Assembly: GCA_003971905.1 (NCBI GenBank)
Contig: RSEE01000089.1
Span: 186,001-250,000 of the forward strand
Source: Moniliella sp. 'wahieum'
Lineage: Eukaryota
Direction: 5' to 3'
DNA: 64,000 nucleotides
The position numbers and the translations under genes were made by a program. Positions within the stretch are counted from its first letter, which is position 1; the number at the start of each line of letters is the position of its first letter. Positions 5,001 through 62,847 of the stretch are shown in pieces. Below the pieces are notes generated by a model. The model saw only the letters and a program-made list of their open reading frames with translations. It searched no databases and was not told where the DNA came from.

Positions 5001-5079
5001 TCAAGCTTCAAGCTTTAAGCTTTAAGCGAGGACAGGCGAGGACTCTCGGAGTTTTGGTCTCAGTAACTCAGTACTCAGG
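5001..5079. repeat. Heptamer palindrome array (AGCT and GTAC cores)
   Basis: TCA-AGCT-TCA-AGCT-TTA-AGCT-TTA at 5001-5024 and TCA-GTAC-TCA near 5068-5077, upstream of the hydrolase gene. Confidence 0.8.
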
Positions 5080-5502
5080 TGCCTGAAGATCGGTCACGCG
5101 TCTGCATGGTGTGGAGACTGGGGCCCCAAGCAACACAGATTCTCGATCATCGATCACCAGCACCATGGTGCATGGGTGCCAGAGAGCTGCGCCTCAGGAC
5201 CCAGGCTGAGTATATTGAGTACCAGTCCTGCATCCGACGCCAGGAGAAACGAAAGGAACCCCCAGCGCGCTCGACCCGCTTATAGCCCAAGTATCCAACG
5301 AACTCATCAATCTTCCTCCCAACTATATGTGAGAGACGGAACACATATCCCGTTGGCCTACTATGCTCAGCCCCTCAACTCATTCTCTACACGCCAGGAC
5401 GTATTTCACCTCTTCGCGTGCTAGGTATTTGCCCTGGGAAGGGGACCCGGCGCTAGCTGAAGACCCTGCTGGAAAGTAGTACATTACGGATCGGCGGTAT
5501 GA

Positions 5503-6885
5503 TCAAGGGAGCACACGAAGTGCATGAAGAAGGTAACCCCCCGTGGCTGAGGTACTCATCTCGGGGTGTGTTCGGCCTGGGAGGACCTGGTAGCGACGCA
5601 GCCACGGCTCATTGACTGTGACCGCAATGTAATCGTGACAGACACGCATGCGCGCATGGGTTTCGACCAACGGCTGCAGGAACGGAGCATGGACCACAAT
5701 GTTGGCCGAGCCGGCAAGGTAGGGCGTGAGCCGTTGGATGATCGGAAAGGGGTCGTACTCGGCCGAGGCAATGACCAGACCATCAAAGTTACCCGCAAAC
5801 AAGTCTTGCCTCGTCGTTTCCAGGTGGGCAAACATGGCACGCCGACGCTTGAACTTACGAATGTCCCGCGAGTTGACTCGGTCCCATGTGACGTAAGTGG
5901 GGCACGCGAATCGGTAGGGAGACCGCCCTCGGCTCAAGTGGAAGATCAGGCAAGGTCCAACTAGGATCAACTTGGGCCCAATTCAGAACCCTGAGGACTC
6001 CATCCGTCGCCTCGGTGGGTAGGTTCATGTCCTTCATGATTGGATGGGCTGGCGGCGAGTCGGCGTCATGGATCAGCAGCAAACACCCATCCACGCCCAT
6101 CCGCTCCAACATGCCGCCCGTCAGCAGTCCATTCGTCCCGTCCACAACAATATACCGCCCTCCCGATTGGATCTCGCCCAAAGTTAAGGTTTGGGCCAAA
6201 GAGTCGGCACGCAAGTTGCTCGCCGGTCGATCCGACGCAGGCGGACGCTTGTCAAATGTGGCCGATGCGAGCTGGTGGGCCGTAGGAGCACGCGGGACAA
6301 AAACTGTCGAGTGTTTCTCCGCCTTTTTGCGACGAAACTTTTCCTGGCTGTAGACGGTGCGTTTGGCGTACGAGGCACTGCGCTGAGCCACCAACTCGAC
6401 CAATTTGGCGCCAGCCATTCCGGCTGCCTTCAAGTCCGCAATTTCCAGACTCGTCAAAGCTTGTGAGTCATTGTCGTCGTAAATATGCTCGTTGGTAGCG
6501 TTCGTCTCGATCAACTGTTCAACGGGTGTGTCCATCAGAACGCTGAGCTTGCCAAAGCCGGCCTTTGCGCGCTGATGTTGCTTGGCCTTGTTGGTCTTTT
6601 TGCCCCGCGTCTCCTCCTCCGCAGTAGAGTCGGCACCCTCACCCTGCCCAGAAGCGGTAGGAACAATCTCGTACTTGAGGCCATACGGAAGACCAATGAG
6701 CTCATCGGCAGAAAAGCTGCCAAACTTGCCGAGTTCAATCGTCTTGCCTTGCTCGAGGACAACCGTTTTGGTGTTACCAGAAGGAAGTTCGAGAATGACA
6801 GGCTTTTGGGCAGGAATGAAGGTAAGCCTTTGGCGTATTTCCTCGCGCGACGTTTCTGGCCGACACGGGTATCGTCGTTGCTCAT
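5503..6885 (-). CDS. TRM6: tRNA (adenine-58-N1)-methyltransferase non-catalytic subunit Trm6/Gcd10
   Basis: ETNATNEHIYDDNDSQALTSLEIADLK, KRTVYSQEKFRRKKAEKH, LRADSLAQTL, YIVVDGTNGLLTGGMLERMG, and C-terminal EPWLRRYQVLPGRTHPEMSTSATGGYLL. Confidence 0.93.
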
Positions 6886-7118
6886 GGCGGTGGGGGGGTG
6901 GTGGTTAGGGTGGTGCGGAAGAACGGCAAGGGCGCGACAGGGGAGAGGACTCGCAGCAGCAGCTTTTCCAACGCCCAAGGCCACCAGAAAAATAAGAGCG
7001 GAATTGGGGTCGGGTGGGAGCCGTCGGAAAAAGGACGCTGGCTTAGGTCAGCACTGGATGAACATTCCCGTGCGACTTAGGCTGCTGCTTACCACCAGCT
7101 CCACTCGTCCTACTAGCC

Positions 7119-9414: not shown

Positions 9415-10385
9415 ATGAGTTTTTTCAAGTCGATGGGCCGGTCTGTCCGCCCAAAGGGCGCTTCTCCCCAGCCCAACCGCGACGGCTTCCCTCCTGCCCC
9501 AGCCACTGACGGTGCCATGACGAGCGTGGCGGGCCAACCGGCCGGCAAGCCGCTGTACTTGTGCAACCCGTTTGTTCGATCCCTCATTAAAGGATCGTAC
9601 AAAACCATCGTTGTGCTTCCCAAGTATGTCGATCAGCGCGAATGGGTCGCGGTCAATCGTACGTTGTCTTGCTCCCTTTCCTAGCGACCCATCTAATCCC
9701 CCTCCGCCCCTCCATTGTCCCCCCTCTGCAGTGTTCGACTTTTTCAACAACCTCAATCAGTTCTATGGCGTCATTACCGAATTCTGCACTGTCCGTAACA
9801 ACCCCACCATGAGCGCTGGCGTCGGTCTGGACTACACTTGGGTCGACCAGAACCGCAAGCAGGTAAAACTCCCGGCGCCGCAGTACATTGACTACGTCAT
9901 GACCTGGGTGGGTGGTTTGCTTGGCGACGAGGCCACCTTCCCTACCAAGGCGGGGTAAGCCCCCCCCCCCCCTATCCCCGTTTGATTCTGCAGGGCAACG
10001 ACCCTTCCTCTACTTTTTGATTCACTTTCCAGCTCGGGACTTCCCCCCCACGTTTATGATCACGGCAAAGCATGTTTACAAGCAGCTTCTTCGCGTATTT
10101 GCTCACATTTACCACGCTCAATTCTCTTGGCTTTTGCATTTGTGCTGCGAGGGACACTTCAACAGTCTCTTCGCTCACTTCATCGCCTTTGGCAGCGAAT
10201 TTGACCTTTTTGACTTTGAAGAGTTCCGCACCTCGGGACGATCGACGGGGAACGCGTCGCAGGCCAACACCGTGTCCGGGAATGGATACCCAGGCGTATG
10301 CGATCTGATTGTCAAGTGGACCGAGATGGAGATCCTCCCCGAAAAAGTCTTGACCAAGTCGATCCCGCAGATTGCCGGGGCATGA
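9415..10385 (+). CDS. MOB2: Mob2-type NDR/Cbk1 kinase activator; 2 introns (~9659-9731, ~9955-10032)
   Basis: LYLCNPFVRSLIKGSYKTIVVLPKYVDQREWVAVN, LPAPQYIDYVMTW, DEATFPTK, KQLLRVFAHIYHAQF, HFNSLFAHF. Confidence 0.92.
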
Positions 10386-11037
10386 GCGTTGAGCGCTGAA
10401 TCTCAGCAGCATCCCTGTACTCAGCTCCCTTGCCCTCTTCAGGCCTCCGTCTGCTGCTGCTCTTGTATAAAATACCACCAACTTGACCATGCTTATCGTG
10501 ATCCATTTTCGCCCACTGGTTGTAGTGTTAGTAACCCATCGATGGATCGAAACCCCAGCCATCCGAGGGGGCAACGGTGCTGTAGGGTGCAGTTGGCTGG
10601 TTGTCTATGCTGAGCTAGCCTCTACCCTGTTCTCTACCCTTTGAGCAGCGTGAGGCACGGGATGCACTTCGCGGGAATCATGTAGATAAAGCATGTGGTG
10701 CAGGATGCTGATGGTCCAGTACCCAGGGGCTCGCAGTTTTCCCTGCCCCAGCCTTAACCTCTGTCAATGACATGGATGAAGAGTGGGGCAATGGGAAGAA
10801 GAAGAGAGAAGGGTTGACGTCATTGAAGTTTCACACTGCGGCTGGTGCGCTACTCTTACAGGATTTGGCTATGCGGGACGTTTGGCTCCGAGAGCTGATG
10901 ACGGCTCGCTCTCGCTCCGCTCCTCAGCTTCCTCAGCGCGTCAGCTCGATCCGCCACCACCGCTACAGACCAAGGTAACTTTGCCTGTTGGCTGCTCTTC
11001 TTGGTTGTCTACTATCACCTGCGTGATCTTTGAAGCC

Positions 11038-15738: not shown

Positions 15739-15760
15739 GCGGGCAAGGGTACCAGGAGAT

Positions 15761-15906: not shown

Positions 15907-16002
15907 GACTGGCGACGCGTGGACATATTGGCGGTTGGTACTGTAGGTCCTGAGTTGCCCTCTCCACCCCGCCGCCGCCACCACCACCTCGCCTCCTCCA
16001 TC

Positions 16003-22579: not shown

Positions 22580-22941
22580 ACTAATGGCGGGGTGGTGGGG
22601 CCCTCCTGATGGCCGACGGAGGCGGAGGGAGGCGGTGGGTTGCTCAGCGCCAGTGGGTGTGGGGGCGGGGGGTTGCTGAGCAGTGAATGGCAGAGCGCCG
22701 ATGCGGCTGCTTGTGGTTGGTACTACTGCTACTAGGGACGGCGTGCTAGGATCGGATGGCTGTGTACACCAAGCACCGTACTCCGGCTGCGGAGAGGCGT
22801 CTGGGAGGGGCGGGAGATAGTCGCTAGATATACAATCCCACCCGGCGGCTCCAAACCAGCCCAAGTGGGTGGTGGTGGTGGGATGAGCGATCGATGAGCT
22901 CCATGCGATGAGCACTGCGCGAGTGATGCGCCTCAGTGCCA

Positions 22942-23074
22942 GTGACTAGTGACTGGTGATTTGCCTGCCGCTGTCTCTCCGATGCCAGGCGCCAGCAGTC
23001 CAGCTGCCCTAGTGCCCCAGTCGGGGGGCATGACCATCATGCATCATGCATCATGCATCATCATTCATCGATCA
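22942..23074. repeat. Heptamer palindrome arrays (CTAG, TGCA x3, TCGA cores)
   Basis: TGA-CTAG-TGA near 22943; TCA-TGCA-TCA-TGCA-TCA-TGCA-TCA 23037-23060; TCA-TCGA-TCA 23065-23074. Confidence 0.8.
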
Positions 23075-23399
23075 TCAACCATCGCATCAGTCCCGCCACA
23101 CGCTCATCCATCCCGCTCCCCCCATCTTGACGCGACCACGCTGGGGCGGCCTAAGCATGCAGATGTTCGTCGCAGCGCCAGGCGTGCGGGTGGCACACGT
23201 GGGCCTGCTTCACTAGCTCTCGACAGTTCCGAGACTCCCAGCTGGCACAGGACACTCTCACTACAGGATACCATCAACCCACCACCTCCAGCGCCGAGCC
23301 GATGCCAACGGGAAAGGGTATGTCGTCGTGACGAGGGGAGAAGAGGTAGGACAGGGCAGAACAGGGGGTAGGAGGGCAGGACAGTAGGGCCAAGAACAG

Positions 23400-26515: not shown

Positions 26516-27225
26516 TTTGAAGATTGAATGTTCAACTCGCCGTTCGACGTGCAATGTTCAATGTTCAATGTGCTCAATCAGGGACCCAGATCACGTGCAG
26601 GCCAGCCTCGTAGTTGCTTGGTGCGGATGCGTGAGCATGTGGTGATGCATGATAGCTCTTGGCCAGGAGCAGAGGCGCGATCATCGACCAGCGATCAGCG
26701 CTCAGCGCCGCCGCTGTGCAGGCGCTGTGCAGGCGCAGCCACCTCCTGCAGCCAATATCCACCGGCCCCACCCCTGTTCCCGCACGCACCCCGGCTGCCT
26801 TTTGCACCGCCCGCCCTACCGCCAACGCCCACCGCCCAGCGCCCACCCGCGCACGCCGCATCATGCATCATGCATCATACATCACCCGCCTCACCCACCG
26901 TGCAGATGATCGACCGTCGCTCACCTCCGGCCTGCACAGCGCGTCTCCGTCTGGCTGCCGCCGCGCCACAGCCGCCTTTTCTGCAATTCTGTCCGCTTCT
27001 GGCGCGCGCCAGCGGCCCTGCAGCAAGGGGCTGTCGTCGTGGAGTAGCGAGCCACTGGTACCTGCATCCCGCAGCCGGCCCCACTGGCCCCACCACGCCC
27101 CGCCTCTTGGCCCCTCCCGCAGCCGTCCGCATGTCCCAGGGATGCCGTGCGTCATGGACAGCACTCCCCCGTCTGTGACATGTGATGGCCACAACGACAT
27201 AATAAGGCCTTAGCTAAGGCTTACC
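26516..27225. repeat. Cluster of heptamer palindrome units upstream of the kelch gene (ATGT variant of ACGT, TGCA, GCGC, CATG, GGCC cores)
   Basis: caatgttcaatgttcaatg near 26552-26570; TCA-GCGC-TCA-GCGC 26695-26708; TCA-TGCA-TCA-TGCA-TCA 26861-26877; TGA-CATG-TGA near 27176; TAA-GGCC-TTA near 27203. Confidence 0.7.
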
Positions 27226-37180: not shown

Positions 37181-38665
37181 GTGAAGCTTGAAGCCTGAGC
37201 TTGTAGCCTATGGCTTGCGGCCTAGCTTGAGACCGAGGCCTGAAGCCTGAAGGAGGGGGGGAGATGACATACACCATTCGGGTCATGCAAATAGTGGGGT
37301 GCCCAGCGCTCATCAACACGCCACGGGATCCTTCTCACGAATAAGGCGAGAGAGCGGCATGATGCATGATGCATGACCAACAAAAGTGGAGCCGATCATA
37401 TCAATATGGCTCCTGTGTTGACCTGTGCTGCGTTCATTATTGCTCCGGGTCTGTTGGTTGCTCTCGCTCAGCCTCTGGGGCCTCAATGTGCCGGCCGCAA
37501 CGTTCAACCCCGGCGGCCATGTTAATCCCCGGACCAGCACCTACCCTGACTTCAAGGAGGGCGGTGGCGTCCAGAGCATAGCGGACGCTCTGCCAAGCAC
37601 ACAGAAGGTCCAAAAAGGTGTTGTGCTAGCTTTTGGCCACCGCAAGTAAGACAGCCCCATACGCGGAGACTTAATATATCCCGTCCCCACCCGCTCCCAA
37701 TATCCCAATGTCCAAACCCCATTGGGCGGCGACGGGCACGAGTCATCACCGGCACGGAGCCTACAGGCCCTCTCTGCCGTGCCCATCCCAGGCCCCTAAC
37801 GGGCGTAAGGCGTCGGGGCGCTTACGCTCAGCCCGCCCCAAGCGCATCGTGCGTCAGCACGCCAGCGCGCGTCAGCCCCACGCCCCCAATTCTTCAGCCA
37901 ACAGCCACACCTTCAGGGGTACTTTTGATGTATGTTGCACAACACCTGTGACATGTGATCGAGGATCTTAGTTCAGAATATATAGTTGGCTCGCAAAAAG
38001 AGCCACAAAACAAGAGGGTCTCCTTCTGGGCCCGATGCCCAACAGAAGCGAAGTGGTTAGCGCTGTGGGGGGGGGGGGGGAGGTGGGGTTACTAGTTACT
38101 AGTTACTAGCTACTCCCCGGGAGAGTGTGTGAGGGGAACTGTGTAAATGTAGGGCGGGTGGAATGGCCCCTCTTCCCCAGGAGTAAATTATCTCCACAGA
38201 GACAGGCCCAGCGCTGATGCCACATGGTGCGCGTTGGACGTTGGGCGTTGGGCTCCGATACATTGAACGTACATTGGCTTGTGCTAGCGACTAGTAGCTA
38301 AGGACGTGTGATGTGTGACGCGTGACGTGAGGCATACGAAGCATGGTGTATGATGCATGGTATCGGATGCATGATGCATGATGCGCGATTGGCCGATCGA
38401 TTGTCGACGATACAGACGCGATGCCGGAAGGGTTACGAGTACTGACCCTGTGCCTTGTGGAGCTGCGAGCGCGAGCCGGCAACTGGCACAGAGTGGTCAA
38501 ATGATCATCGGTCAAGCTTCAAGTGATGTGTGACCGGTGATGGATGATGCATGATGATCGATGACATGTGACAGGTCCATCGATGATACGGCAGGGCGGA
38601 GACAGCAGCAGAGCGCTTTGTCGTGAAGTTTTTTAAGTGCTACTATATACTAGCCTCAAGCTTCA
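37181..38665. repeat. Dense set of heptamer palindrome units in the divergent Sec14-Iml2 / PLC intergenic region
   Basis: TGA-AGCT-TGA 37182; TGA-TGCA-TGA-TGCA-TGA near 37360; TGA-CATG-TGA near 37949; TTA-CTAG x3 38089-38109; TGA-CGCG-TGA 38316; mosaic 38512-38571; TCA-AGCT-TCA near 38656. Confidence 0.8.
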
Positions 38666-42415: not shown

Positions 42416-44303
42416 GCCGGATACTTCAAGTAGGGCGTGGAAACGAAGGTGTACCAATACCGTGTATCGGGGTGAGGAGAGGCGTGACAACAACAAAAAG
42501 CAAACTGAAGGGATGGGACACAGGTAGTGGTGGTGGTGGTGGTGGTGGTAGAGAATGTGGCAAGCCGCGTCCCGCTCCCGCGCGCACTACTGCTGTATAA
42601 GTTCTCAGCGACGGATGGGGGATCCTGGATCTGTTGAGGCCATTGAGGGCGCAGCACGATTGATGCATGATGGCTGTAGCTGCTCTCTGGCGGTACGTGG
42701 TGGGGTCGCTTCGCTCTGAGCTATGCTGGCTTCGGCCGCGCGCGGGTAGAAAAGTGCCGTGAGATCCAAGTCTAGAAATCCGTGTGGAGGTGGATTGTCG
42801 ATGGAAGCGCCGTCTTCGGTGGGAGCGAGACCAAGAGCAAGAGCGAGGCGTAGGTTTTTGCAATGCCCAATGGCGCCTGTGACATGTGAAGCATGATGCA
42901 TGAACAGCGCGAGCGAGCTCTATAGGTGGCTGCAGTAGCGCAGCACTGATGCATGGTGTCGATGACTTGAACGGTGACTGCAGGGCAGGGCCTTCCTATA
43001 ATATAGTAGCTTCCGTACCGCACGGTGTCTTCCAACCCCGCGCCTCTATCAAGTCAGAATGTCAGCCTGGCGTGAAGACCCACCATCTTCTCTCCCACCC
43101 CGCCGCTCTGAGGGCCAAACAGTGAACCCAACCCAAGCTGGGCCGTCCGACGCGCGGGCAATTGATTCGGTCGACTATATGAGTAAGCACCTCCCCCCGA
43201 GAGTGGAATTGAAATATCAAATAATCGTGAGTCGTTGGGGGGGGGGGGGGGGGGGGGGGGGGGCAATCTGCCAGCCCCGGTTCCTCCATGGACTCCGCAG
43301 AGAATGGAAGGTGCGAGAGTCCAACGGTCGATGGCCACAGCGCGTTTGAACTGCTCGCCCCACCTACCCGCCGGCTCGTTGCCGCCAAGCCCCACTTGAC
43401 GCGCATTCTGGTCCGTATCTTTTCAGCCGTGGTGAGCGGGTGGGCATCGCAGCATGTGTGTTTCCTTTCCTTTCCTTAAGCGCTGGCTTATTCCGGTTGT
43501 TTTCCTGGCCAGCCCCACGTGGACAGATGTGTGGTTTCTATCATGCACCTCTCTGTCCTCCGTTCAGTACTCAGTGTGCACCATCGAAAAATAGATCGTC
43601 GATCGCCGTTGGTTGTTGAGGATCGCGGCTGTGCAGCCCTATTGTGTAGCGGTGACGTGGACGTGCCGCGTCATCTTGCGCTTCAAGCTTCACAGTGGTT
43701 CCAATAGTGGCAGCCCAATCAAAGCCCATTCATCAGGTAAGACAAGACGACATTCATCATGATTCGTGAGCTGAGCGAGGGAATGCCCTCAATACCTACG
43801 TATTTTTATGGTGCTGTAGAACCCTGCCAACTGCCGAGGCTCGGAGCGCCAAGAAGCGGAGAGTAGGACGGGGACCATGCATCCATCTAGGTGCGAAAGA
43901 AGGTGGGGGGTAGAGGGGGGGGGGGGGAGTCAAACGAGGCCAGCAGCAGAACTAGAGCAAAGAAAGATCGACAATACCAGACTGCAAGAGAGAGGTGGGG
44001 GCAGGACGGACTTGACAAACCAAAGATACACGACAGCACAGGAGAAACAAAAGGACATAGGACAAGGACAAATGGCAAAGGGAAGAGGAGAAAGGAGAAA
44101 GGAGAAAGGTCAAAAACAAAGGGAAGAATTGAAACGAGGGGCACAGAAGGAGCGCATTGTGGACTGGAAAAGGGAACACGGACGAGACGGGAAAGCTAGA
44201 ACGGATGTGGGGCCAGGGATGGGGGGGGAAGGACAGTCAGCGACAAAGCGGATCAAACGAGCGAGGAGGGACGCGGGGGTTGGGGGTTGGGGTTGAAGTT
44301 GGT

Positions 44304-47501: not shown

Positions 47502-47779
47502 GGCGGGGGGAAGGGGGGGGAGGGTGGGGGGGGGGGCGGAGAGGAGAGGAGAGGAGGGAGAGGAGCGGGTGGGGGCGGAGGGGAGAAGGAGCCAGAAAAA
47601 ATGCGCTGACGGGCTGGGGAGGGGGGCTGAGCCTCAGCAGCAGACGGGGGCTGAATGATTTCAGTTCTGGCCCGTCGCGTCGATTAACGATTGCTGCTGG
47701 ACGCGGCTGGGCAGTGAGCGGTTGAGGCTGATCGATCGCTGATCTGAATACGTGTCCTCACCACAGGCACCGGTGATAG

Positions 47780-50304
47780 TGACTAGTGACTAGTGACCGC
47801 CGTCGCCTGCCGCAAGGAGCAACTAGTAACTAGTAACTACCGCCCAGCATCCGACATCCTCCCCAGGCAGGAGCCACTACGCCCCCGTGCGGACGCACCC
47901 ACGCCCAACCCTGCTGCTCGCACCTCCCCGCGGGAGCAGGGTGCGCTTGAGCAGCCGCTGCGCCCGGCGCTACACTGCCCTCCCCCCCGCCCTCCCTCGC
48001 CTGCCCTGCCCTGCCCTACTTGGCCAGCCAACCCTCCCACCCCCACAGGGGCAGTGTGGCCCGTACTCGAACTGGCCAGTCCCTTACTGTACCATTTAAT
48101 ACTTATCATGCATCGCCGTCATCGGTCATCGCTATCGGCGCCAATCCCTAGTCCTGCATCCTGGTCAGTGATTTATGGTTCACCCGATGAACGTGATTAA
48201 CGTTACACCGTCCAACCCTTCCATTGAAGCGAGTGAATATTGAGTTCGCAGCACCTGGTCAGTACGTACACCCATGCGACGTGCCATCGATGCGGGGCGG
48301 GGATGGAGCCGGGCACTGGAGCACTGGGTACTGGGGGGGAGGGCACCACGGCCATCGACCACCAGCATATTGGCGCACTGGGGGTGCCTACTACTGCCCC
48401 CTCCTCGATCCTGGCCAATGCTAATGCGCTAATGCATAATGGGATAGGGGAATCGAGGCCCGAGGACAAATGACGCGGTGACGCGGAACCTCACTCAGTC
48501 AGTAACTAGTAAGTAACTCGTAACATGTGATGTATGATGCATGATGCATGATGATCAACGGTTGATGATCTGCAGAGGGTGCGGCGGCACTGTGGCCCAG
48601 CACGACCAGCACGGCCCAGCCAAGACGCTTTTTGTTCGCGTGACTACATTTCCCCCAAAGTTGAACGTTGAACGTTGAAAGTACTTGAACGTTGAATATT
48701 GAAAGGTCCATGCACGGGGGAAGAAGAGACCACCAACCGCCGCCTTATCGAAGTGACTAGTCGCTAGCCCACGGAGTAACTGAGTACTGAGTGACACACG
48801 ATTACTGAATACTGGTGCCGAACGGGCCACACTATGGGCGTATCGCCTGCCCCAGTGTGCTCGTTCTTTTGTCATCGTTTCTGGTGATAGTGAGCGCTAG
48901 CGCATGGCGGCATGCCTGCGCACAATGATTAATGGCCAAAGACGCCGACAGCCCCCCAAGCAATTGGGCTCATGTATTGGCCAATGCCTCAACCCCTATC
49001 GGTCCAATGAATCCGTCCTGTGTTCTGGATGAAAACTGAGCTGAATAGTGAATCTCACCGCCATCCGAGGAACGTGTGGGCCATGCAATTTACAAAGAAA
49101 AGGTTTAAAGAACAGTAAGAATGGCAAGGTGCCAGTGGGTTCGGACTGGCCTGATGCATGATGCACGATGCATGGTGGCGATTCCACTGTCTTCGTGAGT
49201 AGGTTGGCACGACAGCTCAGCCTGACCGCGCCCACATGCACCCGATGAGCGGGGGCCTGTGATATAGAGGCAGTGTGTCTTTGTCCCAGCCTTATTAAGC
49301 TCCACCCTTACTATTAATGTCATAGTTTGGTTGATCGATGATCTTGCTCCCATTTCCAATTTCTTCGTCTCGAGCGTCGCGCTCCTTTCCTGTTTTCTTC
49401 CACTTCGCACCATGCCCTCTGTTCTTGCTTCTTCCCCACGAACGATTGCTACACCCCTTGGCCTAGTCCGATTCTGGTCTCCCTCGCCTTAGCCCCGACT
49501 GTGACAATTAAGCTCTGTAAATATGAAACGGTAATGTGAATATTGAATGCAGAGAATGTAGAACCAAAGGAGAAAAGAACCTCATTAATCATTTTATTGT
49601 TTCGGTCTGTCACTAGTGTCACTAGTCACTTCCATCAGCATCACTAGCTTCACTAGCCACTAGCCACTAGTCACTAGTCACTAGTCACTCAATCATTAAT
49701 CACTCCGGCGCCACAGAAGGGTCAAAAGGAAGGCCTAAACTCCAAGGCCTAATCGACCTAAGGCCTAAGGCTTAGGCCTAATCGATAATCGGCGCGTAAG
49801 GCGTAATCGACGTAATCGACCAATCCACATTCAGCACGTTCAACGTTCAAAACGTACAAGGTAAGGTGCACAGGGCAAAATTCCGACGGCGACCGGTGAG
49901 GTGGCCGGTGATGTTTGACCCACAAAAAATATAAATGGTGCCTTCCGCTTTATGCGACGGGTCGATTGCCTCACAATGAGCTTACCCACACCTCCAGACC
50001 CTTAATCTTCTTAGCTTCGGGACGTTCAACGTTCAACGTTCACGACGTTCACGCTCCCCATAGTGCATCCGTCCATTCTTCTGATCCAACACTTCCAGAC
50101 ACCCGCGTGCGCGTGACCCTCCTCCACACTTACACCCACCAAATGTGTTCGGGATCTCAGATCCCATTTGACATGCTGACCGGCGACCGACGATGACCCC
50201 GCACGTTTCTCTGTTTCCTTCTGTTCATTTGCCCCACTCCTACCCTTGTTTGATTCGCCCGGGTTCGTTGGCTCCACAACTCAGTACTGAGTACTGAGTA
50301 CTGA
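47780..50304. repeat. Multiple heptamer palindrome arrays upstream of the TEA gene
   Basis: CTAG arrays 47780-47796, 47821-47836 and 49611-49687; TGCA 48535-48551; ACGT/ATAT 48662-48702; GTAC 48781 and 50281-50304; GGCC/TCGA 49731-49826; ACGT 50022-50042. Confidence 0.85.
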
Positions 50305-53300
50305 ACTCATATACTCAGTTGAGACTTCACAGATCGCCATGCTTCTCCCCTCCCCACAACCATAATCTAAAGCGCTTTTAAGCTTTTATTGATTCGGCGC
50401 GACGCTGATCGCGCTGATCAAAATGGTTATGATTCTCTCCCATAGTTTTCCAGATCTTCTCCGTTTGTAACTCCAAGTCTCGACAGAGCGGCACACCCCT
50501 CTGGTTTGCCCTGTGCAGGAGAGAGACCGCGAAAAGGCTATTGCCGTTAACCACACAACAGGCCTCATGGACCTCATCTGATGGATGTGCTGGGTCAGCT
50601 GAACCTGGTACTTTTTCCCTCAGTCTCTCTACTACCATAAGCGGTCCATTTCGAAAAGGGATGACAACGTTCCCCATATCAGATCGGTGGCACTGTCGTG
50701 CTGACGTCTTCGTGCTAGCATCGTGCTCGCAGTCCTGGGCAATGCCACCAGGTAGATACTGCTTCGTCGTCGATCCTCCGGTGGGAAAGAGCAAGACTGG
50801 GACTCTGCTCCGGACCCATCTCGCTCCGGACCCATATCGTGACAAAACGGAGCGGCGCTGCCACAGCTGTCACAGTCGGGGCCAAGGTGAGAGAAACCAG
50901 AGTCGAGACTAGGTCAAGGGATATAGCAATCGTGCGTGCCAGGGAAGAAGCAAGAGCATATAGCACATGATGCGAAGTGGAAGAAACAGAGAAAGAGCGA
51001 AGAGACGCTCGGGACAGAAATTGGAAATGGGAGCGAGATCAGCCAAATTATATGACACCAGCCCAAGGGGTAGATAAACACAACCTCTTGTCCACTCGGA
51101 CCACGGTTGTACTGAGTTTGCCCTCTTTACATTATATGCTTCTTCGCTTTAGTACTTCCAAACGAGGGGTGCGAAACGGTAGTGGCAGCAATCACAAGGT
51201 GCAGTCTTCCAGCCGAAGTCACGACAGCACGTTCCCTCCTACAAGATCAAAGCATGGCGACAGCGCATTTCCTATCATGCAGATCGGGTAACTCGGAATG
51301 GCCGTCCCAATCCTGCCACCTGTTATCTTTTGAGGAGCTAACCGTTGCGGCAGGCTATCCCATCGCTTTAGTGCAGCACAGTGGCATACACTCTAGTCAA
51401 CGAAGACGATAAGGAACTTCTTGTCGCCCCAGGCTTCTCCTCTGCGCCTATTTGGGTATATGATATGAGACGAAGGAAATGGCTATTAGAGTGGGCGAAC
51501 AGCAAGGGTCGCAGTGACGGCTCACCGGGGTGCAGGGTACGCTGAGATGGGGGAGGACGGTAGAAACCACTACCTTTGCGCTCGAAGACCCGAGCCGTCA
51601 ACTGATTTTGCTTCGGCCGCGATCGCGGAGCCGAGGCCGCACGTGCCTAGTCCTGCCGTGTTGGAGCTTAAGAGAGGCATGAGAACAGGGACGATACAAC
51701 TGGCTTGCGGAACCGGTCGTTTTGGTGCAATAAACGTGCGAACTCTATGGGGGCAACAGGGCAAGGGACGAAACCGTCAGCAATATCACCTGCCACGCCA
51801 TCCCACTGCCGCTGCTGATGCGACCGCCGTGGGAATAGTGAGGGCAATGTCGGGATGTTCCCCTCCGGGGGCGGACCCGCCACAAGGAGTATGAAGCGCA
51901 ACGATGCGAGCGAGTGGAAGCAATAAGCGTTCCACAAGATGAGATGAAGAACTTTGTCGGAGGACCGTGACCAGAACGGGATGGGCTTCAGGCATATATA
52001 TATGGAGACACTATGACGGTGGATGGACAGAAGGGCGAAATGGGTCCCACAAACTTCGTGTAACTATAGCAATTTACCGGAGAAGGTTAACTGTTCTTTT
52101 TACCGGATATCTCTCTTTCTATAAAAAGAGAGTAGTAGGAGATTGGTCGGAACGATGTACTACCATAGCTGGATGTGGAATAGTACTACGAAGTCCATAC
52201 CACCAATCTCACGGAGGATGGGATGAACGAGCTACTAACATCGCGATCCACGGATGGGCCAAGAACCGAGAATGTCGATGAGTCTGCAAACCAGCAGGCT
52301 GTTGTAATGAGCATAGTCTTCGCCGTCCTGTATCAAAGCAGGTGTACCGGCCGCGGCACTTCGACTCTGTCCAGACCTCGCTCTGCCCCGGCCCAAACTC
52401 TTGGGCGGCATTGCATTGGGCCGCAGGGATGACGCAGCGCCCACGTACAACCCATGCGTCCCTTTTCCCTTTTTTTGTCTTGACCTGGACCACTTCAGAG
52501 GCACTACTCTTCCGTTCGCTTTCCGACGCTGGCCCGGCTGACTGGCTCACTCCCATACGCTCACCGTCACCCCGATGACCAATAATCAAAACGGCGTTTT
52601 GTTTCCCGTGAAGCCCCGCCTATAACCCAATCCTCACAGTCGGCCACATATTGGGCAAGCAGGCTCAGGCGCTCAGTAGAACGTGGGCACCCCCCCGGTC
52701 ACCCGCATTTCCCGTCTTGTCGCACCAATCTACTGGTTTCCAGACAAGGGCAACTTTTCTTCTGCTGGGGCGCAAGCCACACACACCACGTTCCGGTGCT
52801 CCACAACTTCCACTGTTTTTTGCATTATAGTCTCCTGTCGCCAGTTGTGCCTTTTGAATCTCTGCTCCTGTAATCCATCCACAAGGTCCACAGTCCCTGC
52901 CCCTGCAGTTTTAATACGAGACCAATTCGCGGCAGTGCTCCACCCCCCCTGCCTTTCCTAAAGAGAGACTCAGAGGTGCCCGATGAGCAGCAGCTCGGAG
53001 TTACCCGACATGTTTTTGCGAACAGTAAGACCTCGGCCATGTGTATATCCATCATGATGTGCCTAATATACAGATGGGGCAGAGATTGATGCGTCTCGCG
53101 TTGCCGGGTCACATACATACACCCAAACTCTCGGCTGTGCACATATACGGCTCTGTTCTACATATTCTCCTTGACCCTTTATTGTCTCTCTCTCTTCAAG
53201 CGTTTTGTTTATCGCATGATTAATGATTGATGATTGCTTCTCCTCTGTTCCATGCAGTCTGAACTTGAATACCATCGTCATACAAAACAACTCTCCTTCA

Positions 53301-53801
53301 CTCGTCCTCCCATGCGGGCCTGGGGCCCAAAAGGACGACAGAGGATGATACTACTAGAGCTCGAGCTAGGACTATCACAGAGACTACTAGCACCCCCTCC
53401 TCTACGGTACTACTGATATAGCCAAGTAACAGGGTGGATTCGGGCAAGCATACGCACCGTCAAGCTTCAAATGTCGAACTATAGCGAAACCCACGAAAGA
53501 ACCAGGCTTTGCGTCCTTCGTCGATCGTCGCCAGTCGAGCGCGACTGGCTAAGTGTCTGTGTGGCGTGGCGTGCGGCGGGATCCCAAGGCCCTCCCCATA
53601 ACCCTTTTCCTCTCCCCGCCGCCCGCCCACGCAATCCACCCGGCAGGTCTGCTAAACACACAAAACACACACAACGGGGCAGGTGAGCACAAACAAGCTC
53701 ACGTGCCAAGGCATAACTTTGGGTGCATGGGCAGCTGACAGCCGACAAGGCTTCTCAGATCTCAACCCCTGCTGACATGAACCAAAACAACAACTGATTG
53801 C

Positions 53802-54718: not shown

Positions 54719-55396
54719 GATGGACGCACTGCTGGCCACATAGACAAAGCCGGGATGATACGGGGGTTGGAGGCGTAGCGACGACCGGGTGGGGGTCGGA
54801 TCGAACGAAGCAGACGGGCGGCGGAAGAGAGGGGTGGCGTGGGTGCTTGGGGGAGGGGAGAGAGGGAGGTGGGCACGAGGAGCAGAAGCGGGAAAGGGCG
54901 ATGGGAGGCAGCAGCAGCTGGGCTGGCGGCAGCTGGGCTTTTATAGGGCGAGAGGGCCCGGCGTCAGCCACGCTGCCAGCTGGGGGGGCGGCGGGCTGGA
55001 GGGCAGTGTGGCGCGGGAGTGGGGGAGTGTGCGAGTGCGGGAGTGCGGAGTGGGGAGCGCAGGAGCAGGCTGCAGCGCTGCAGGCACCGGGTGGGGGCCA
55101 GGGTTCCGTGCGCCGGCGCTGCTCTGGTGCGGGGGGCGGACGCAACCCTAGGGATGCGGCCGGGGTGCCGCCGTGCCAGCGCCGGGTGGCCGTGTGCCAT
55201 GGTGCGCTCCTCGGGCGCTCGCAACAGCGGCCCCCTGCTGGCATCCACGCTCACGTTGTCATTGCGGGCGGGTGGGTGTGGAGCGGAATGGAGCGGATAG
55301 GGCCTAGGGGGTGGCATGTGGCATGCGACATGTGACGTCGAATGGATGATGCATGATGCATGGTGTCGATGACGCGATGACTCGATGATGACGCCG

Positions 55397-55456
55397 GATG
55401 CCGATGCAGGATGCCGATGCAGGAGGCCGATGCAGGAGGCAGGTGCAGGATGCAGG
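55397..55456. repeat. 13-bp tandem repeat (GATGCAGGA[T/G]GCC), about 3.5 copies, next to TGCA/CATG heptamer units
   Basis: gatgcaggatgcc gatgcaggaggcc gatgcaggaggc, read directly. Confidence 0.7.
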
Positions 55457-56145
55457 GGTGCAGCGGATGGGTGGATTGACTGACTGGTGACGCGGACGGG
55501 ACATGGAATTCGGCGCTGGCTGCGCGTGAAGCGGATGGGGCGGGGCAGCGGGGCAGTGGGGGTGGATGGGGTGCATGGCATGTGGCCGGTGGGCGTGGGC
55601 GCGTGGGATTGCAATCAAGCAATCCATCAGTGCCGCCGATTCCCCGTGGCTGGGGCGCTGGGGGGCAGAGGGCCGGGTGGCTAATCATCCCTGGGGGGCA
55701 CGGGGCAGGCGTGTGCGCAATGCTGAGTCTGAAATCGTGCTGACTAGGATGCGCCGATGCACCGAGGACTGCGGCCTCAGCCTGGTGAGATCGATAGGTA
55801 CGAGTCCAGTCCGTGGCGAGTACAGAGTGCTGACGCACGGACGGCGTGCACTTGTACTTGTCAAGCATGTCACGTGTTATCCAGTAGGCAGTATGCGGCA
55901 GTGTGAAGAGACTGTGACATGCATGTGACAGGCGGTGCCGCAACCCTGTACTGGCCTGGCCAGGCTTGGCTTTCAATTTCCAGTTGAATCGTTTGGCTGC
56001 CGAGTGCAGGCTACATGCGCCAACACCCTCGTCGGCTCCACCCGGCTGCCCCAGACTCCACCTGCGCTGACCCTCGCTGAGCGTCGCCCTGCCTTCGCAC
56101 AAGCTGCCCGCGCCCTCGCCTGACGTTGCGGGCGCCCGTGCGACC

Positions 56146-57534
56146 ATGTCCCCGCCGTCCCGCTTGCCTCGCACGAGCCAGGCGACGCACCTGCTGCCGA
56201 TCCCCTGCAATCCCCTCCGCTCCTCCACCCGCTCCTGCCTTCCGCCGCCGCCTCGCCACCCTCCGCCTCTCCGCCCGCCTTGTTTGACGCTGGTCTGTCC
56301 CTTCCCCCGCCCGATCGTCCGTACGATGGCCGTGTGCTGGCCTCGGCCGATGCCTCCACCTCGGCCGCCGTCCACAGCCTCTCTCCGCCCGCCCCCGCCC
56401 GAACCCGGCTGGACTCGGTCCGCCTGGCCCTTGGCCGCTTTGGCCGCCTGGTGGGCATGCGTGTGCCTGGTGCGGTCTATACCTCGCTGTCCCAGTCGGA
56501 CGACGATCCTGGGGTGCATCCACGCCGTCGCGTCGTTGGTTCGGGCCTGGGCCAGGACGGTGTGTTCTCCAATATGAATGCCAAGCCCGAACCGCGCCGG
56601 CGCCGTCACCCCAACGCCGGGATGGAGGGAGATCGTGGCGAAGACGACGACTTGGTTCGTTGCCCCCCCCCCCCCCCCCCTAACCCTTCCTCTATCTTTT
56701 CCCGGTAACAAGGCTGACCATTTCTTCCAGGCTGACGAGGACGAAGTGCCCCCCTCGTATGCGCAGGCTGCTGCCGATGCCGTACCGCCCTATTGGGAGA
56801 CCGCCGTGGGGGCGGTCTTCCCCACCCTCTTGCCCCGGGGGGCAGCGGCTGGACTCCTGGCTCGACGTCTGTGGGCTCAGTGCAAGATTTGATTGTGGAT
56901 GGATTACCGGTGGGCAACCTATTTGGCTTGGTCTGGAACCTGGTGGTATCGGTGTGCTTCCAGTTTGTCGGGTTTCTGCTCACCTATCTGTTGCACACGA
57001 CGCATGCCGCCAGAGCTGGTTCGAGGGTGGGGTTGGGAATCACCTTGGTTCAGTACGGATTCTCGCTGCGTGCGTCGGCAGAGAAGTTGCGCTCCGAAGT
57101 GCCCAACGCCAGTTCTGGACAGGAAGATGCGGGGGCCAAGACAGCCCAAGCTATGGAAATGTCATCGGCTGATTGGCTTTCCTTTTCTCGTCCTTCTGGG
57201 CGCACTCATCATCCTGGCCAGCTCCTCGTCGTACATCAAGCTCGTGCGCTTTGGCCACCGTCTCGTCAAAGAAGCCCGTCGTGATCAGGAGGATACCGAG
57301 GCGACGCTGGAAACGGATGCGGTTACGTTGCCATCCAACCCGGCGACGCCTGCGTCCACCGTTCATGCCTCTGCCTCGCACCACGCTCTCTCCGTTCTTC
57401 AAGCCATGCTGCAGCGTCCACATATTCCACGTATAGCCTCGGCCGCCGCGCAGGAGGACAGGGAACGGCGGACGGCGCTGGCACCGGTCTTTGAGCTGGA
57501 AGATGTGGAGGGTCCGCCGGCACGATCCACCTAG
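56146..57534 (+). CDS. BSD2: Bsd2-like Rsp5/Nedd4 adaptor (metal homeostasis membrane protein); intron 56655-56730
   Basis: GQDGVFSNMNAKP; PY motif PPSYAQAAADAVPPYWET; DGLPVGNLFGLVWNLVVSVCFQFVGFLLTYLLHTTHAARAGSRVGLGITLVQYG. Confidence 0.92.
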
Positions 57535-58562: not shown

Positions 58563-61500
58563 TCAGGCCTCAGGCCTCAGGGCGACAGCTCCTTGGCCCA
58601 CTGTGCTGCGGTGAGGTGCACGCCTTTGAGCCGTTGCCGCAGATCGGCCAAGAGGCCTTGGGAGCGCAACTCGTGGGCCGTGCGCGCATACAGCGCAGTG
58701 ATGGTGTTGTCCCCATCCCTCCATCTCCTCTCCGACACGGGGGGGGGCGTGCCGGGGCCGAGGGAGCGGAAGCAAGTGGCGCTGCCGCGCGCTGCTGGCA
58801 CGTTGGCCCGCTCGCCGGCACCAAGGGCAGCGCGGGCGCTTCCTCAGTCGCATACGTAAAGGAGAACCGGGGCAGGGGGGCAGGTTGCTGTTCTGCGCGC
58901 TTGCTCGCTGCCCAGGCGGCGGTGATGAAACTCTCTTCGGCGTGGAGCCGCCTTCCTGTAGCGGCTGGGGCGCGAAGGAGTGGGTACGGCGGCCAGCGGT
59001 GCGGGGCGAATGGGTCGCTGGTCGTTTGCCCATCCGCGCCGTACGCAGGGGCAGGCGCGCGTCCGACTGAGGCGGCGCAGGCCAGACCAACAAACGGCAT
59101 GGGAGGACTGGGTTCGCGTTCCCGTTGCCGTTCCTGGTCCGTACCAGCTGCGGCACCACGGGCATGCTTGCCGTTGGTGAACAGTCTTCTAGGAAGCGGC
59201 AGTCCGGCACCTCGTTCCCGCTCCCGTCTACGCGGGAAGGGCGAGTCGGCTTCCTGGACGACAAGCGGCCGAGACAAGGGAGAAGTGCGACGGGTACGAA
59301 TCGGACCCACCCTGGGCTCCCTCCTCTTCGCCACTAGAGAGGCGGGCAAGTGCACTGACAGAACGGGAAGCGCGGCGCGCGACGAAGGCGAAGCTGATAC
59401 CCAATCTTCCGCCTCGGACGCCGAGTCGGGCGAGCTTTCGAGCGAGGCAGTGGCGCGGCGAACGCGTCAACGTCCATCGCTTTGGGCGGGAGGTGGTAGG
59501 CCCAGTACTGTGCGTGGACACGGACTCGGGCTCGGACGGAAGCGAAGGTGATGGCGATGGCGAGGCGGAGGGCGATGGCGATCCGACGCCCAGCCCGTGG
59601 GGAAGGACTGGTGGGAGGCGCAAGTGGGTGGGTGTTGGAACCGGGTACAGGCGAGCGGCCGTTGGCCGGTCGAGGTAGCGGGATGTTCGTTGGGGGTCCA
59701 AATTTGACCCTCGCGGCGTTGCGAGCACTTTGTTGCACTGCGCATCATTTTCTCCAGGCCTCAGACTCGGATACTTGGCGCTTGGCTTGCTCCCGCCCGA
59801 GCAGCGTGTGTCGCTGCCAACGCTTCTGTCCATCGGACGCAAACTGGGAGGTGGGTGGCGCATCCGGCCGGGGGTAGGCAAGACCGGTGCCGCCTGAGGG
59901 AAAGGGTAGGGAGAAGGGGGAACACCACTGGGGGGAACCGAAGTTGGTTGTTCCGCCCCTGCCATTCCTCGTGCCGGGGTGGAGAAGCGAGCAGCACGAG
60001 GGGCAAGGAAGGAGGATTCGAGAGGCATGTGGCCTCTGCCCGAGGCCATGGCAAAGGCCGGGGTCGAGGCGGGGAAGGCCACCAGGCCGGCAAAGGGGGT
60101 GGAGAGCAGGGACCCGGCACCGCCGTGTGCACCGAGGCAACCATGGGAAGACAGTTTGGCTCATCGAGGCCTGGCGTGGCGTGTTCGGGGATCGGAGGGA
60201 AGCAGGGGGAGGATGGTCAAAGCAGTGGCGGTCGGGACGGGGGTAAATCGATCCAGGTGAAGTCCACCTCGAGGTCGGGCTGCTTATCATGTTCGTCGTC
60301 CGCCTCCCCCTCCGAAAGGGAAGGGGTAGAGAGCGAGGCATCCATGGCCTCCGCTCGGTCATCTCAGTGTCCCCCGTGCGGGGGGGAGGAGAGAGATGCT
60401 GAGACACGCACTGCGGAACGATCAAACGAGTCGGAAGAGGGGTACGTCTTGCGCTGGCATGAGGTAGCTCTCATCCGGAACAGCACGACTCGTCCACCAT
60501 CGGGACAAAGGGGGGTGGCGCCGTCGTCCATGAGGCTGGGTCAGATCCGGGCAAAGAAGGCATGGTTCAAACTTGGTCGGAACCTTGCCGCCCGAGGCGC
60601 TGCGCCGGCGCCGAAAGAAGCCCGAGAGGAGCGAGCGCAATTCTTTGCTGATCGGCACCGACTCGTCCAGACGCAGGAACTGGTCATGATGCGGATGCGG
60701 TAATAAGCCTCAGACGGCTTGGGGGACCAAAAGGGGAGTGAACCATACGTCATCTCATACAGCACCACGCCCACCGACCACCAGTCGACTTCGGGTCCAT
60801 AAGCCCCGGGACCATCCGCAGGGAGGTGCACGGACTCCTCCCCGTCCTGAGAGAGACCTGCCAATCTGCTCTCCTCGTGCAAGAGGATCTCAGGCGCAAT
60901 GTAGTCGCACGTACCTGCTGGTTTTTTGGCAATACATGTGGTTGTACCAGGCGTTGCTTCCATTCCCTGTTGGGGTGATCGGGTCGAACCAACCAAAGGG
61001 AGCGGCCGTGCCAAAATCACAGATCTTCAAGTGGCCCGTCGAGTGCAAGAGAAAGTTGGCTGGCTTGATATCGCTGAATCAAAGGGTGAGCAAAGATGGA
61101 CCAGCGGGGGAGGTTACGGGGTAGATGCATGCGTACCGTGCGCAAACCCAATGCCATGCAACCAGGCCACAGCCGCACAAATGTCTTTAGCATAGGCAAG
61201 AGTCCAATTTTCCGTCAGAGAGCGCCTGGAACCTTGCTCTGACCCGGGTACGAGGCATCTGCAGCGCCGGCAGAGGACAACAGGGCCTCGAGGTCGCCCG
61301 CAGGGCATTATTCCATGACCAAGTGGGCTGCCTCGTGGGACTGGAAGGCGGTGGGGAGGAGCGGTGTGGGCATGCTGCCCCAAAATTCCCCCGGGACAAC
61401 CGACAGAGCATCTTCGTTCGTCTCGGTGGTATCTCTCGTGTGGCCGAGGGAGGCAGACAGATCCGTAGTGCGGCCCGAGGCAAGCGCTTTGAGGAAGATT

Positions 61501-62053
61501 CGCTTTTCCAGCAACGGGTTAATCCTGTACCGTTCCCTCTCGGCGGCGCCCTTGAGGGTAGACTTGAGCACGTATACCTTGCCATCGTGCCGGCAGCGCA
61601 CGAGATCGACCATGCCGGGCCCACCGCGCTGCAGGTTTCTGACCAAGGTGTAGTCGGCGGCATGGAGCATGAGCTCGGGCACGCGCGCCAGCTGGGCGTG
61701 CTCGCTGCTGGGCAGGGATCGCGGGGGCACCCAGAGGAGGGCCAGGGCCGTATCAATGTCGGCCGAGTGGACGCTGGAGGAGGAGGAGAGGGGCGGGGGT
61801 GGCCGAGCTGGTCTGCACGCGTCCTGGCGGCTTGGAGACGGCGGCGATGGCGGGCCGTTGAAGGAGGGTGTCGAGCTGGGTGCTGCGCTCTCGCCACAGG
61901 CGGAGTTCGCCGGCGGGGGCGGAGGGCATGCTGGAAAGAGGGTGGGAGGCGAGGAGGTGGGGGGAGGAGGGAAGGCGGGCGAGGCGGGCGGTGGGGCGAG
62001 GTGGGTGGCTGGATGCTCTGTGGGTCGGCCCCTACACCGCGGGGGTAGAACAT
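58563..62053 (-). CDS. AGC-group Ser/Thr protein kinase with long disordered C-terminal tail; intron ~61076-61136; ends approximate
   Basis: [69 protein letters not shown]. Confidence 0.9.
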
Positions 62054-62847
62054 GGAGGGACCGAGGGCTGTGTCCAGGGCATCGGTGCAACGGCTGCGGG
62101 CACGGCGCCAGTGGGTGCGCCACTTGCCGTGCCAGGCAGGGGGCGCTATAGATGTTAGACTAACGACCAAGCAACCAGCCAGGCGAAACAGTGCTGGAAG
62201 TCGCAATTCGCAGCCACGCGGCCGGTGAGGCGACCGTGACCGGTGAGCGATGCCAGCCGCACATCTCAGGTGGCCCAAGCACACGCTCCCCCCTCAGCGC
62301 CCTCCAGCCTCAGCCTCCAAGCCTCGCCCACAGCCTCCATCCCCAGGCACTGGGCCGTGTTTCGCTACTGGCTGCTGGGGTCTGCGCGTGTGCTCGGGTG
62401 CGGGAGCTTCTCCTTTAGGAGAGTCTCTCGGGTGCTTTTCAAACTCTACCATTCTCAACACGCCCCCCATCTCCATATCCCATCGACCACATCTCCATCA
62501 TCGACGTCATCCCCGTACTACCAAAACATGTGGTCAAGGCATTCCATCTCCCCATGCTGCCCGCCATTTCACGCCACAGTGCTCCGTTGCCCTACCCAGT
62601 CCCCACCCCCGTCCTGCACCTCTCCCTCTTCAAGTTTCCCTGGATCCGTTGCGCAAAGCAACGCACCTGCAAGCGTGGCGCAACACATGGGCACTACGAT
62701 AGATAGGGGGGGCAACTTTTTGGATTTGACCTCGCTACTTAACGAACACTGTTTTGCAGTTTGCACCATCGGTGCCGAACCCACCCGCCATCATGAACAT
62801 CATGCCAACAATCTCACAGAACACTCGTCCCCTAGGCGGTCGCAGCG

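Follow-up and report, generated by a model that had tools for sequence, protein, structure and literature searches.

A TNA-centred heptamer signature in intergenic DNA of Moniliella sp. 'wahieum' and its possible origin in transposon excision

We analyzed a 64,000-nucleotide (nt) stretch of contig RSEE01000089.1 (positions 186,001 to 250,000; assembly GCA_003971905.1) from Moniliella sp. 'wahieum', hereafter the window, which is eukaryotic DNA of 58.0% G+C. Genes identified with Pfam include eIF3d, Gcd10, a proteasome Rpt1-like ATPase, enolase, PI-PLC, a Sec14-like protein, Mob1, and a TEA/ATTS factor, among others. The best named relatives of the eIF3d exon belong to Ustilaginomycotina, with Tilletiaria anomala closest at 55% identity. 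Gene models are approximate, having been built from Pfam hits and a self-trained codon-usage score, and the rough coding prediction covers 29118 of the 64000 bases; Rfam and tRNA scans of the window returned no match. The subject here is a pattern in the DNA between these genes, in which two copies of the trinucleotide TNA (N, any base) enclose a 4-bp palindromic core and which recurs in places with a period of 7 bp. A preliminary description of the pattern had offered two readings, a code read by a DNA-binding or chromatin factor and a hairpin-type mutational process.

The TNA-centred repeat unit

The pattern is real and far beyond chance. The preliminary description had placed the TNA-core-TNA 10-mer at 13 positions and had counted 13 of the 16 possible cores; the 10-mer is present at all 13, and the tally of cores rises to 14 with GATC at 53755, leaving only AATT and TATA missing. 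The controls it had proposed, namely shuffled sequence, other outer base pairs, and non-palindromic cores, were run on the window. The window holds 82 copies of the palindromic 10-mer, compared with 6.6 ± 2.5 in 50 dinucleotide-preserving shuffles, while TNA pairs around non-palindromic cores number 104 against 113.4 expected (0.92x). When palindromic cores are combined with any of the 15 remaining outer pairs, ratios stay between 0.59x and 1.95x; CNG and GNC give 0.59x and 0.69x, and the ANT pair is not enriched (13 vs 7.9 expected). Exact period-7 tandem repeats tell the same story when set against 20 dinucleotide-preserving shuffles: 41 have at least 2 copies (shuffle mean, 4.2), 18 have at least 2.5 copies (0), and 8 have at least 3 copies (0). 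The repeat unit is a 6-bp palindrome plus one base in 24 of the 41, and in 23 of those 24 the outer pair of the palindrome is A..T.

The middle bases of the two TNAs are identical in 73 of the 82 motifs (GG 35, CC 30, AA 5, TT 3) and complementary in 3, which makes the unit a direct TNA repeat and not a perfect 10-bp palindrome; a model of long palindromic tracts generating such palindromes was rejected on the same 3/82. The motif is contained in 61 maximal exact period-7 runs. Their commonest length is 12 (21 runs), and lengths of 10, 11, 13, and 14 are found in 3, 4, 10, and 5 runs, respectively. The 2-nt extension of the motif is one-sided, falling on one side in 10 runs, on the other in 9, and on neither in 3. 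Because run lengths peak at 12 and the extension is one-sided, we take the elementary object to be the 12-mer TNAxy.y'x'.TNAxy (a prime marks the complement), that is, a 5-bp direct repeat, TNAxy, whose two copies are separated by the reverse complement of xy.

Searches with fewer assumptions recovered the same object. When the T/A requirement was dropped (S z x y y' x' z' S z x y, both strands), 96 matches were obtained; z was A in 90, and in 83 of these 90 the unconstrained preceding base was T. Of the two-base spacers in TNAxy-NN-TNAxy (n = 107), 83 match the reverse complement of xy, none that of the first two bases, and 24 neither of these, many being one-base variants. The core bases are thus inverted copies of the adjacent flank, as palindromic (P) nucleotides are. 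With identical middle bases, a core length of 4 is the only one enriched (73 vs 1.6, compared with 9 vs 8.3 at length 2 and 1 vs 0.5 at length 6), and the bases outside 32 isolated 12-mers carry no constraint. Per 1000 available TNA sites, those with a middle G or C were used about twice as often (30.4 and 26.5) as those with A or T (13.3 and 13.3).

A lineage-specific process converts mnTNAxy into mnTNAxy.y'x'.TNAxy, or into the mirror form mnTNA.n'm'.mnTNAxy, with a net gain of 7 bp. The window offers one internal comparison, an inverted duplication (49315-49506 / 50868-51065) that was used solely for this purpose: its paralogous arms differ by a 7-bp indel, TGATC.GA.TGATC at 49332 as opposed to TGATC alone. 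The arms are ~190 bp long and lie ~1.36 kb apart, with no target duplication at their ends and no coding signal.

Junction classes, arrays, and placement

Junction models were compared on a grid over the 7-mer W = mnTNAxy, in which the trim and the number of P bases were varied on either side. Together with its mirror, the junction W + 2 P bases + W minus 2 gave 83 matches vs 0.67 expected. All rarer enriched classes retain the whole 7-mer, with TNA at positions 3-5, and carry 1-4 flank-derived palindromic bases between intact 7-mers. They comprise W+2+W at 4 loci vs 0.1 expected (49608, 49802, 50404, and 50038), where the repeat stops before the eighth base; W+2+2'+W at 55913; W+GATC+W at 22882 and 47727; W+2+W[1:] at two loci; and W+1+W at one. 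Junctions with a net gain of 3-6 bp were not enriched in the grid, and a search free of the TNA constraint (u + reverse complement of its last two bases + u) gave 0 matches at k = 8 and 0 at k = 10. As in an excision footprint, two target copies, whole or trimmed, flank the junction, in the form TNAxy in 83 cases and as full mnTNAxy at ~8 rarer loci.

Two other accounts of the junctions were set aside. A 5-bp duplication (TNAxy) that is asymmetric, only one flank donating P bases, does not accommodate the full mnTNAxy junctions; because these exist and the P bases never come from the TN side, a symmetric 7-bp model is preferred over a 5-bp one. A 3-bp TNA duplication flanking the terminal two bases of transposon ends would require 14 element families for 14 cores, since the core consists of neighbouring flank bases. 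At 48550-48570, the sequence GATGATC.AACGGTT.GATGATC places a TNA-centred 7-mer on either side of a 7-nt quasi-palindromic filler that is not flank-derived, a single case that may be a remnant of element ends.

Eleven of the 61 runs hold at least 2 units, several at the whole-unit lengths of 14 or 21, and the longest array reaches 3.9 units. The mixed-core array at 38512-38573 can be parsed as successive events copying the left or right flank (e.g., GATGA.TC.GATGA). At 49651-49670, CACTAGC x2.9, whose CCACTAG units carry CCA in place of TNA, adjoins a TCACTAG array and is nevertheless amplified. The same units, with ACTAGT, AACGTT, and AGTACT cores, occur on both sides of ~49.5 kb with opposite spacer polarity (47778-48792 and 49669-50304). 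They include the inverted matches 47778-47797 / 49670-49689 (20-nt, perfect) and 48662-48682 / 50022-50042, and the order of these pairs does not match that expected of one inverted duplication.

Placement is strongly biased, in line with the upstream clustering and near-absence from coding sequence that the preliminary description had noticed. Intergenic DNA that contains a promoter accommodates 46 of 50 same-spacer loci, at a density of 2.47 per kb. Terminator-only intergenic DNA has 2 loci (0.42 per kb) and gene spans a single one (0.03 per kb), and the remaining locus sits at the window edge. The loci lie a median of 797 bp from the closest approximate gene 5' end. Nine of the 82 motif 10-mers lie inside the rough coding prediction, several in weakly scored segments. 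Two matches fall in genes with good support, enolase and the TEA gene, and both are of the complementary-spacer type. The segment 47634-53939 contains 34 of the 82 10-mers. Its ~6.3 kb lack convincing coding potential, a very long gap for an otherwise compact genome, and none of its open reading frames (ORFs) of at least 55 amino acids has a Pfam match. We also asked whether spacer polarity (G vs C) follows gene orientation and rejected the idea: neighbours share polarity, but their polarity does not consistently follow the downstream gene. Overall the motif occurs at 55 loci in 64 kb. Perfect copies number 83 (0.1 expected) and copies with one violated constraint 85 (8.3 expected); decay thus looks neutral, and the near-parity of the two classes fits neutral scars of mixed age.

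Table 1. Loci carrying the TNA-centred signature and associated features (window coordinates)
Feature	Position	Strand	Remarks
TCAAGCT/TTAAGCT array, 3 motif 10-mers	5001-5026		directly upstream of a minus-strand ORF ending at 5000
Isolated 12-mers TGAGT.AC.TGAGT (5066-5077) and TGATC.GA.TGATC (5145-5156)	5066-5156		both read on the minus strand
TGAGC.GT.TGAGC then GC.TGA	10383-10399	+	one decayed unit and one intact
GATGAGC.GATC.GATGAGC	22882-22899	+	full 7-mers, 4-nt filler (1 + 3 flank-derived palindromic bases)
AGTGACT x2, (CATCATG) x3.9, TCATC.GA.TCATC, decayed TCA-N4 units	22941-23076		
Cluster upstream of Kelch-repeat gene	26643-27212		TGATGCATGA, TCAGC.GC.TCAGC, (CATCATG) x3, TCACA.TG.TCACA (minus strand), TAAGGCCTTA
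TGAAG.CT.TGAAG, (GCATGAT) x2.9, TCACA.TG.TCACA, (GTTACTA) x3.1	37182-38107		Sec14/PI-PLC divergent intergenic region
TGACG.CG.TGACG and (GATGCAT) x2.7	38316-38383	+	
Mixed-core array, constant TGA	38512-38573	+	cores CCGG, TGGA, TGCA, TCGA, CATG, CAGG
Five loci, cores TGCA, CATG, TGCA, GTAC, AGCT	42661-43692		upstream of glycosyl-hydrolase-like gene
GCTGATC.GATC.GCTGATC	47727-47744	+	full 7-mers, 4-nt palindromic filler
(GTGACTA) x3, (AACTAGT) x2.7	47778-47838	+	upstream of TEA/ATTS-domain gene
Run of loci	48420-48792	+	GCTAATG.C.GCTAATG then CA.TAATG; TAACT/TAAGT array
Later part of the same run	48420-48792	+	(TGATGCA) x2.9, TGAACGT array with ATAT unit, (ACTGAGT) x2
Inverted duplication, left arm	49315-49506	+	partner ~50868-51065; arms ~85% alike
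TGATC.GA.TGATC	49332-49343	+	counterpart arm, read as the reverse complement of ~51030-51045, has TGATC alone
TGAAT.AT.TGAAT; TCATT.AA.TCATT	49537-49630	+	
TGTCACT.AG.TGTCACT, then AG.TCACT	49608-49623, within 49537-49630	+	full 7-mer + 2 palindromic bases + full 7-mer
Dense stretch	49641-49849		CACTAGC, TCACTAG, and AAGGCCT arrays; TGATT.AA.TGATT; TAATC.GA.TAATC; TGAAC.GT.TGAAC
CGTAATC.GA.CGTAATC	49802-49817		W+2+W, inside 49641-49849
(TGAACGT) x3 continuing as CGTGAAC.GT.CGTGAAC (50038-50053)	50024-50053	-	full 7-mer class
(AGTACTG) x3.1	50281-50304	+	
GATCAGC.GC.GATCAGC	50404-50419	-	full 7-mer + 2 palindromic bases + full 7-mer
TGATT.AA.TGATT, TCAAGCTTCA, TGAGA.TC.TGAGA	53217-53764		last is the sole GATC core
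TGATG.CA.TGATG	55347-55358	+	
TGTGACA.TG.CA.TGTGACA	55913-55930	+	intact 7-mers, 2 palindromic bases from each flank
(TCAGGCC) x2.7	58563-58581	+	
TGACCGGTGA	62237-62246	+	final motif match in the window

Transposon excision weighed against other origins

We are modestly inclined to read the heptamer pattern as a mutational scar, the excision footprints of a hairpin-forming cut-and-paste transposon with a 7-bp TNA-centred target, and not as a binding-site code. The agent itself we infer, since neither an element nor a transposase lies in the window, and the same holds for the excision steps, the element's identity, and the hotspot feedback described below. A cut-and-paste DNA transposon would insert at NNTNANN and generate a 7-bp target-site duplication. 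Excision would leave both flanks as perfect hairpins, the chemistry of RAG/Transib, hAT, and Mutator, and a host nuclease would open each hairpin 2 nt 3' of its tip. One opened flank would then end in the self-complementary 4-nt 3' overhang xyy'x', its partner in n'm'mn. The protruding 3' terminus of one flank would be sealed straight onto its partner's recessed 5' terminus, which now begins at the T of TNA; in such butt-joining, both strands would be ligatable without synthesis or trimming. The top strand would then read W.y'x'.TNAxy and the bottom strand its mirror, and the heteroduplex would segregate into the canonical or the mirror footprint. Minor junction classes could arise from hairpins opened at the tip, at +1, or at +3, or from retention of both overhangs.

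Opening at +2 with butt-joining would explain the 5 + 2 geometry, the net gain of 7, the near-equal orientations (10 and 9), and the absence of P bases beside TN. That both ends carry the same 7-mer and donate inverted terminal bases points to insertion with a 7-bp duplication followed by flank-hairpin excision. Each footprint would also duplicate TNA and set the second copy in a symmetric 7-mer, y'x'TNAxy. A new insertion-excision cycle at the same spot would add an identical 7-bp unit with the same core, an event using the outer flank would add a different palindromic core and build mixed arrays such as that at 38512-38573, and slippage could likewise lengthen arrays once at least 2 units exist. 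Footprints would persist only where a +7 frameshift is harmless, and the element may in addition prefer to land in promoter-containing intergenic DNA.

An unlikely alternative obtains the same +7 product without a mobile element. TNA might be cleaved by a transposase-like nuclease, host or domesticated; or it might be nicked, whereupon the strand would be displaced, synthesis would switch templates briefly to the displaced strand, and the quasi-palindromic TNA would re-anneal. It fits the lack of an element or transposase in the window, the very stereotyped outcome, and the high event density; T-N-A, self-complementary except at its centre, would presumably aid re-annealing after a strand switch. 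Against this, two hairpinned ends sharing a 7-mer would seem to need a prior duplication of the kind that insertion provides, and template switching does not account for why the geometry should be fixed at 5 + 2. Re-annealing also predicts an equal or better yield from CNG and GNC, which reach just 0.59x and 0.69x. We regard it as improbable that the 7-mers, each an A....T palindrome plus one base, were amplified by hairpin-driven replication slippage of the CNG type. Arrays do reach 3.9 units, the strands are self-complementary save for the spacer base, 11 of 61 runs hold at least 2 units with several at 14 or 21, and the CCACTAG variant array expanded without TNA. Yet slippage cannot make the first palindrome from a TNAxy site, leaves the T..A specificity unexplained, and does not account for a modal 12-mer of 1.7 units, whose 2-nt extension is one-sided and which falls short of the 14 bases that whole multiples demand. 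Predicted single-strand hairpins of 6 arrays are weak as well (-2.0 to -3.2 kcal/mol; z from +1.24 to -2.45, with z < -2 in 1 of 6). The hairpin mutational process of the preliminary description thus pointed in the right direction, but its CNG-like expansion component has little support, and the palindromes are created de novo, not amplified for being palindromes. Slippage probably contributes to array growth only.

It is very improbable that the motifs are binding sites of a dimeric or oligomeric DNA-binding or chromatin factor, or of several palindrome-binding factors, selected in promoters. The promoter bias (46 of 50 loci) is what such selection would give, and the TGA/TCA half-sites and hexamers may resemble bZIP-type half-sites. 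The 14 cores, however, share no sequence, the two neighbouring bases dictate each core, and palindromy as such could not be read by a protein across so many cores. Non-palindromic cores stand at 0.92x, leaving no gradient of tolerance, one-mismatch copies are as common as perfect ones, and spacer polarity bears no consistent relation to gene orientation. The factor reading TGA-N4-TGA proposed in the preliminary description lacks support on the same grounds, a core dictated by flank bases and present in 14 versions. An assembly or base-calling artefact deserves hardly any credence, as the pattern is sequence-specific, avoids coding DNA, decays in a graded manner, and differs between paralogous arms of the same assembly.

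Several observations weigh against excision by a transposon, even as we favour it. No intact element, defined by TNA-centred 7-bp direct repeats and a terminal inverted repeat match of at least 10/12 within 9 kb, was found in the window (0, and 0 in a reversed-sequence control), and the same search with any 7-mer gave 2 vs 2 in the control. A Pfam scan of 283 ORF translations (20 + 150 + 113, the 113 from long non-coding regions) detected no transposase domain in the window, and fillers between distant 7-mer copies yielded no recurrent sequence that might hint at element ends. Some 50 loci in 64 kb would imply a very active element, with none nearby. One junction type makes up ~90% of events, a uniformity greater than that of reported hAT footprints. 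The choice of a 7-bp over a 5-bp target depends on the ~8 rarer loci, the data come from a single genome, and the sole 7-bp indel (TGATC vs TGATC.GA.TGATC) could have run in either direction. By a rough estimate, random re-hitting of TNA sites would produce ~2 multi-unit runs, compared with the 11 of 61 observed, an excess that calls for slippage or a hotspot effect in addition. Growth of the CCACTAG array with a mutated TNA likewise suggests that arrays already present underwent slippage or conversion.

A broader proposal, which we offer as speculation and consider rather unlikely as a whole, is that a hairpin-forming transposon or a host-kept transposase with a 7-bp NNTNANN target wrote a sizeable share of the promoter DNA. 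Each +7 footprint would remake a plain TNA as a symmetric version of the favoured target and so draw in new insertions, with footprints acting as self-reinforcing hotspots that lengthen into heptamer arrays. Since each unit would be a new 6-bp palindrome beside a TGA/TCA, the whole would serve as a generator of palindromic cis-regulatory sites.

Known systems and wider significance

Excision footprints with P-type palindromes are well established. Classical hAT elements use an 8-bp nTnnnnAn target, and their flank nick, offset by 1 nt, leads to odd palindromes around A-N-T. The signature described here differs in its period of 7, its TNA centre, and its even palindromes, and ANT-pal4-ANT (pal4, a 4-bp palindrome) stands at 13 vs 7.9. 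More generally, hAT, Transib, Mutator-like elements (MULEs), and RAG form flank hairpins that are opened by host enzymes and joined by nonhomologous end joining, which leaves footprints (PMC5499845), and the footprints of Ac/Ds are palindromic sequences derived from flanking DNA (PMC4561436). Footprints of Ac/Ds, other hAT, Mutator-like, and Transib elements share with ours two copies of the target duplication and flank-derived palindromic additions, as well as a dominant junction type accompanied by minority variants (PMC4561436, PMC5499845).

V(D)J recombination offers a parallel in chemistry. Artemis opens hairpins mainly at +2 to leave 4-nt inverted-repeat 3' overhangs, i.e., P nucleotides; the zero-offset hairpin, +2 opening, 4-nt overhang, and 2-nt palindromic addition all resemble the present case (PMC2175297). 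Coding joints, unlike the junctions reported here, are far more heterogeneous, and they form in lymphocytes as opposed to a fungal germline. The RAG/Transib target duplication is 5 bp (10.1101/2023.08.20.553239), and footprints of this type could take P nucleotides from either flank; in our window, TN-side P bases occur in 0 of 107 cases and full 7-mer junctions exist. Basidiomycota DNA transposons with 7-bp duplications are represented by hAT7 in Pucciniales and Kyakuja in Laccaria (PMC12730594). The likeness to these rests on two features, the same phylum and the same unusual 7-bp duplication; they are described from Pucciniales and Agaricomycotina (PMC12730594), not Ustilaginomycotina, and the window contains no homologue.

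PIF/Harbinger elements (Tourist/mPing) share a T-N-A target with a free middle base (PMC4561436) but have a 3-bp duplication and mostly precise excision. Here the core is determined by the flank, TNATNA occurs 45 times vs 36.2, and the TNATN'A hexamers of a 3-bp hairpin model show no enrichment in the window (14 vs 15.9, 14 vs 15.2, 0 vs 2.2, and 2 vs 2.4). Canonical Tc1/mariner footprints are likewise dominated by one stereotyped form; their extra bases, however, come from the element ends and are constant within a family, in the same source's account (PMC4561436), whereas ours are flank-derived and site-specific. Microsatellites and CNG expansions also form short head-to-tail arrays of self-complementary strands, unlike the present arrays in that these start from a 12-mer with an inverted flank copy, are strict for T..A, and form weak hairpins.

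A literature search found no description of a 7-bp TNA-centred, near-single-outcome footprint that saturates promoters and seeds heptamer arrays. If the transposon reading is correct, one regular mutational signature would explain most period-7 repeats and a visible share of the promoter DNA in this compact genome, and sequence alone would reveal that a transposon no longer nearby had been active, which target it used (NNTNANN), and by what chemistry it cleaved. Excision footprints could then seed microsatellite-like arrays, and the genome would provide a natural experiment on the recruitment of new palindromes as regulatory sites. Motif-discovery tools would be expected to report such scars as promoter "grammar".

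Other simple repeats occur in the window. Long homopolymer runs in its non-coding DNA comprise G x22, a perfect G x27, a G-rich 32-mer, and C x18 (38067-38088, 43237-43263, 47505-47536, and 56663-56680, respectively), and the lead-in sequences of the G runs at 38052 and 43230 are alike. Tandem duplications with a period of 10-13 lie outside the TNA scheme, namely GGATGCCGATGCA x4.5 (55396-55453), CGCTGTGCAGG x2.3 (26712-26736), and GGGCAGAGCG x2.4 (31823-31846).

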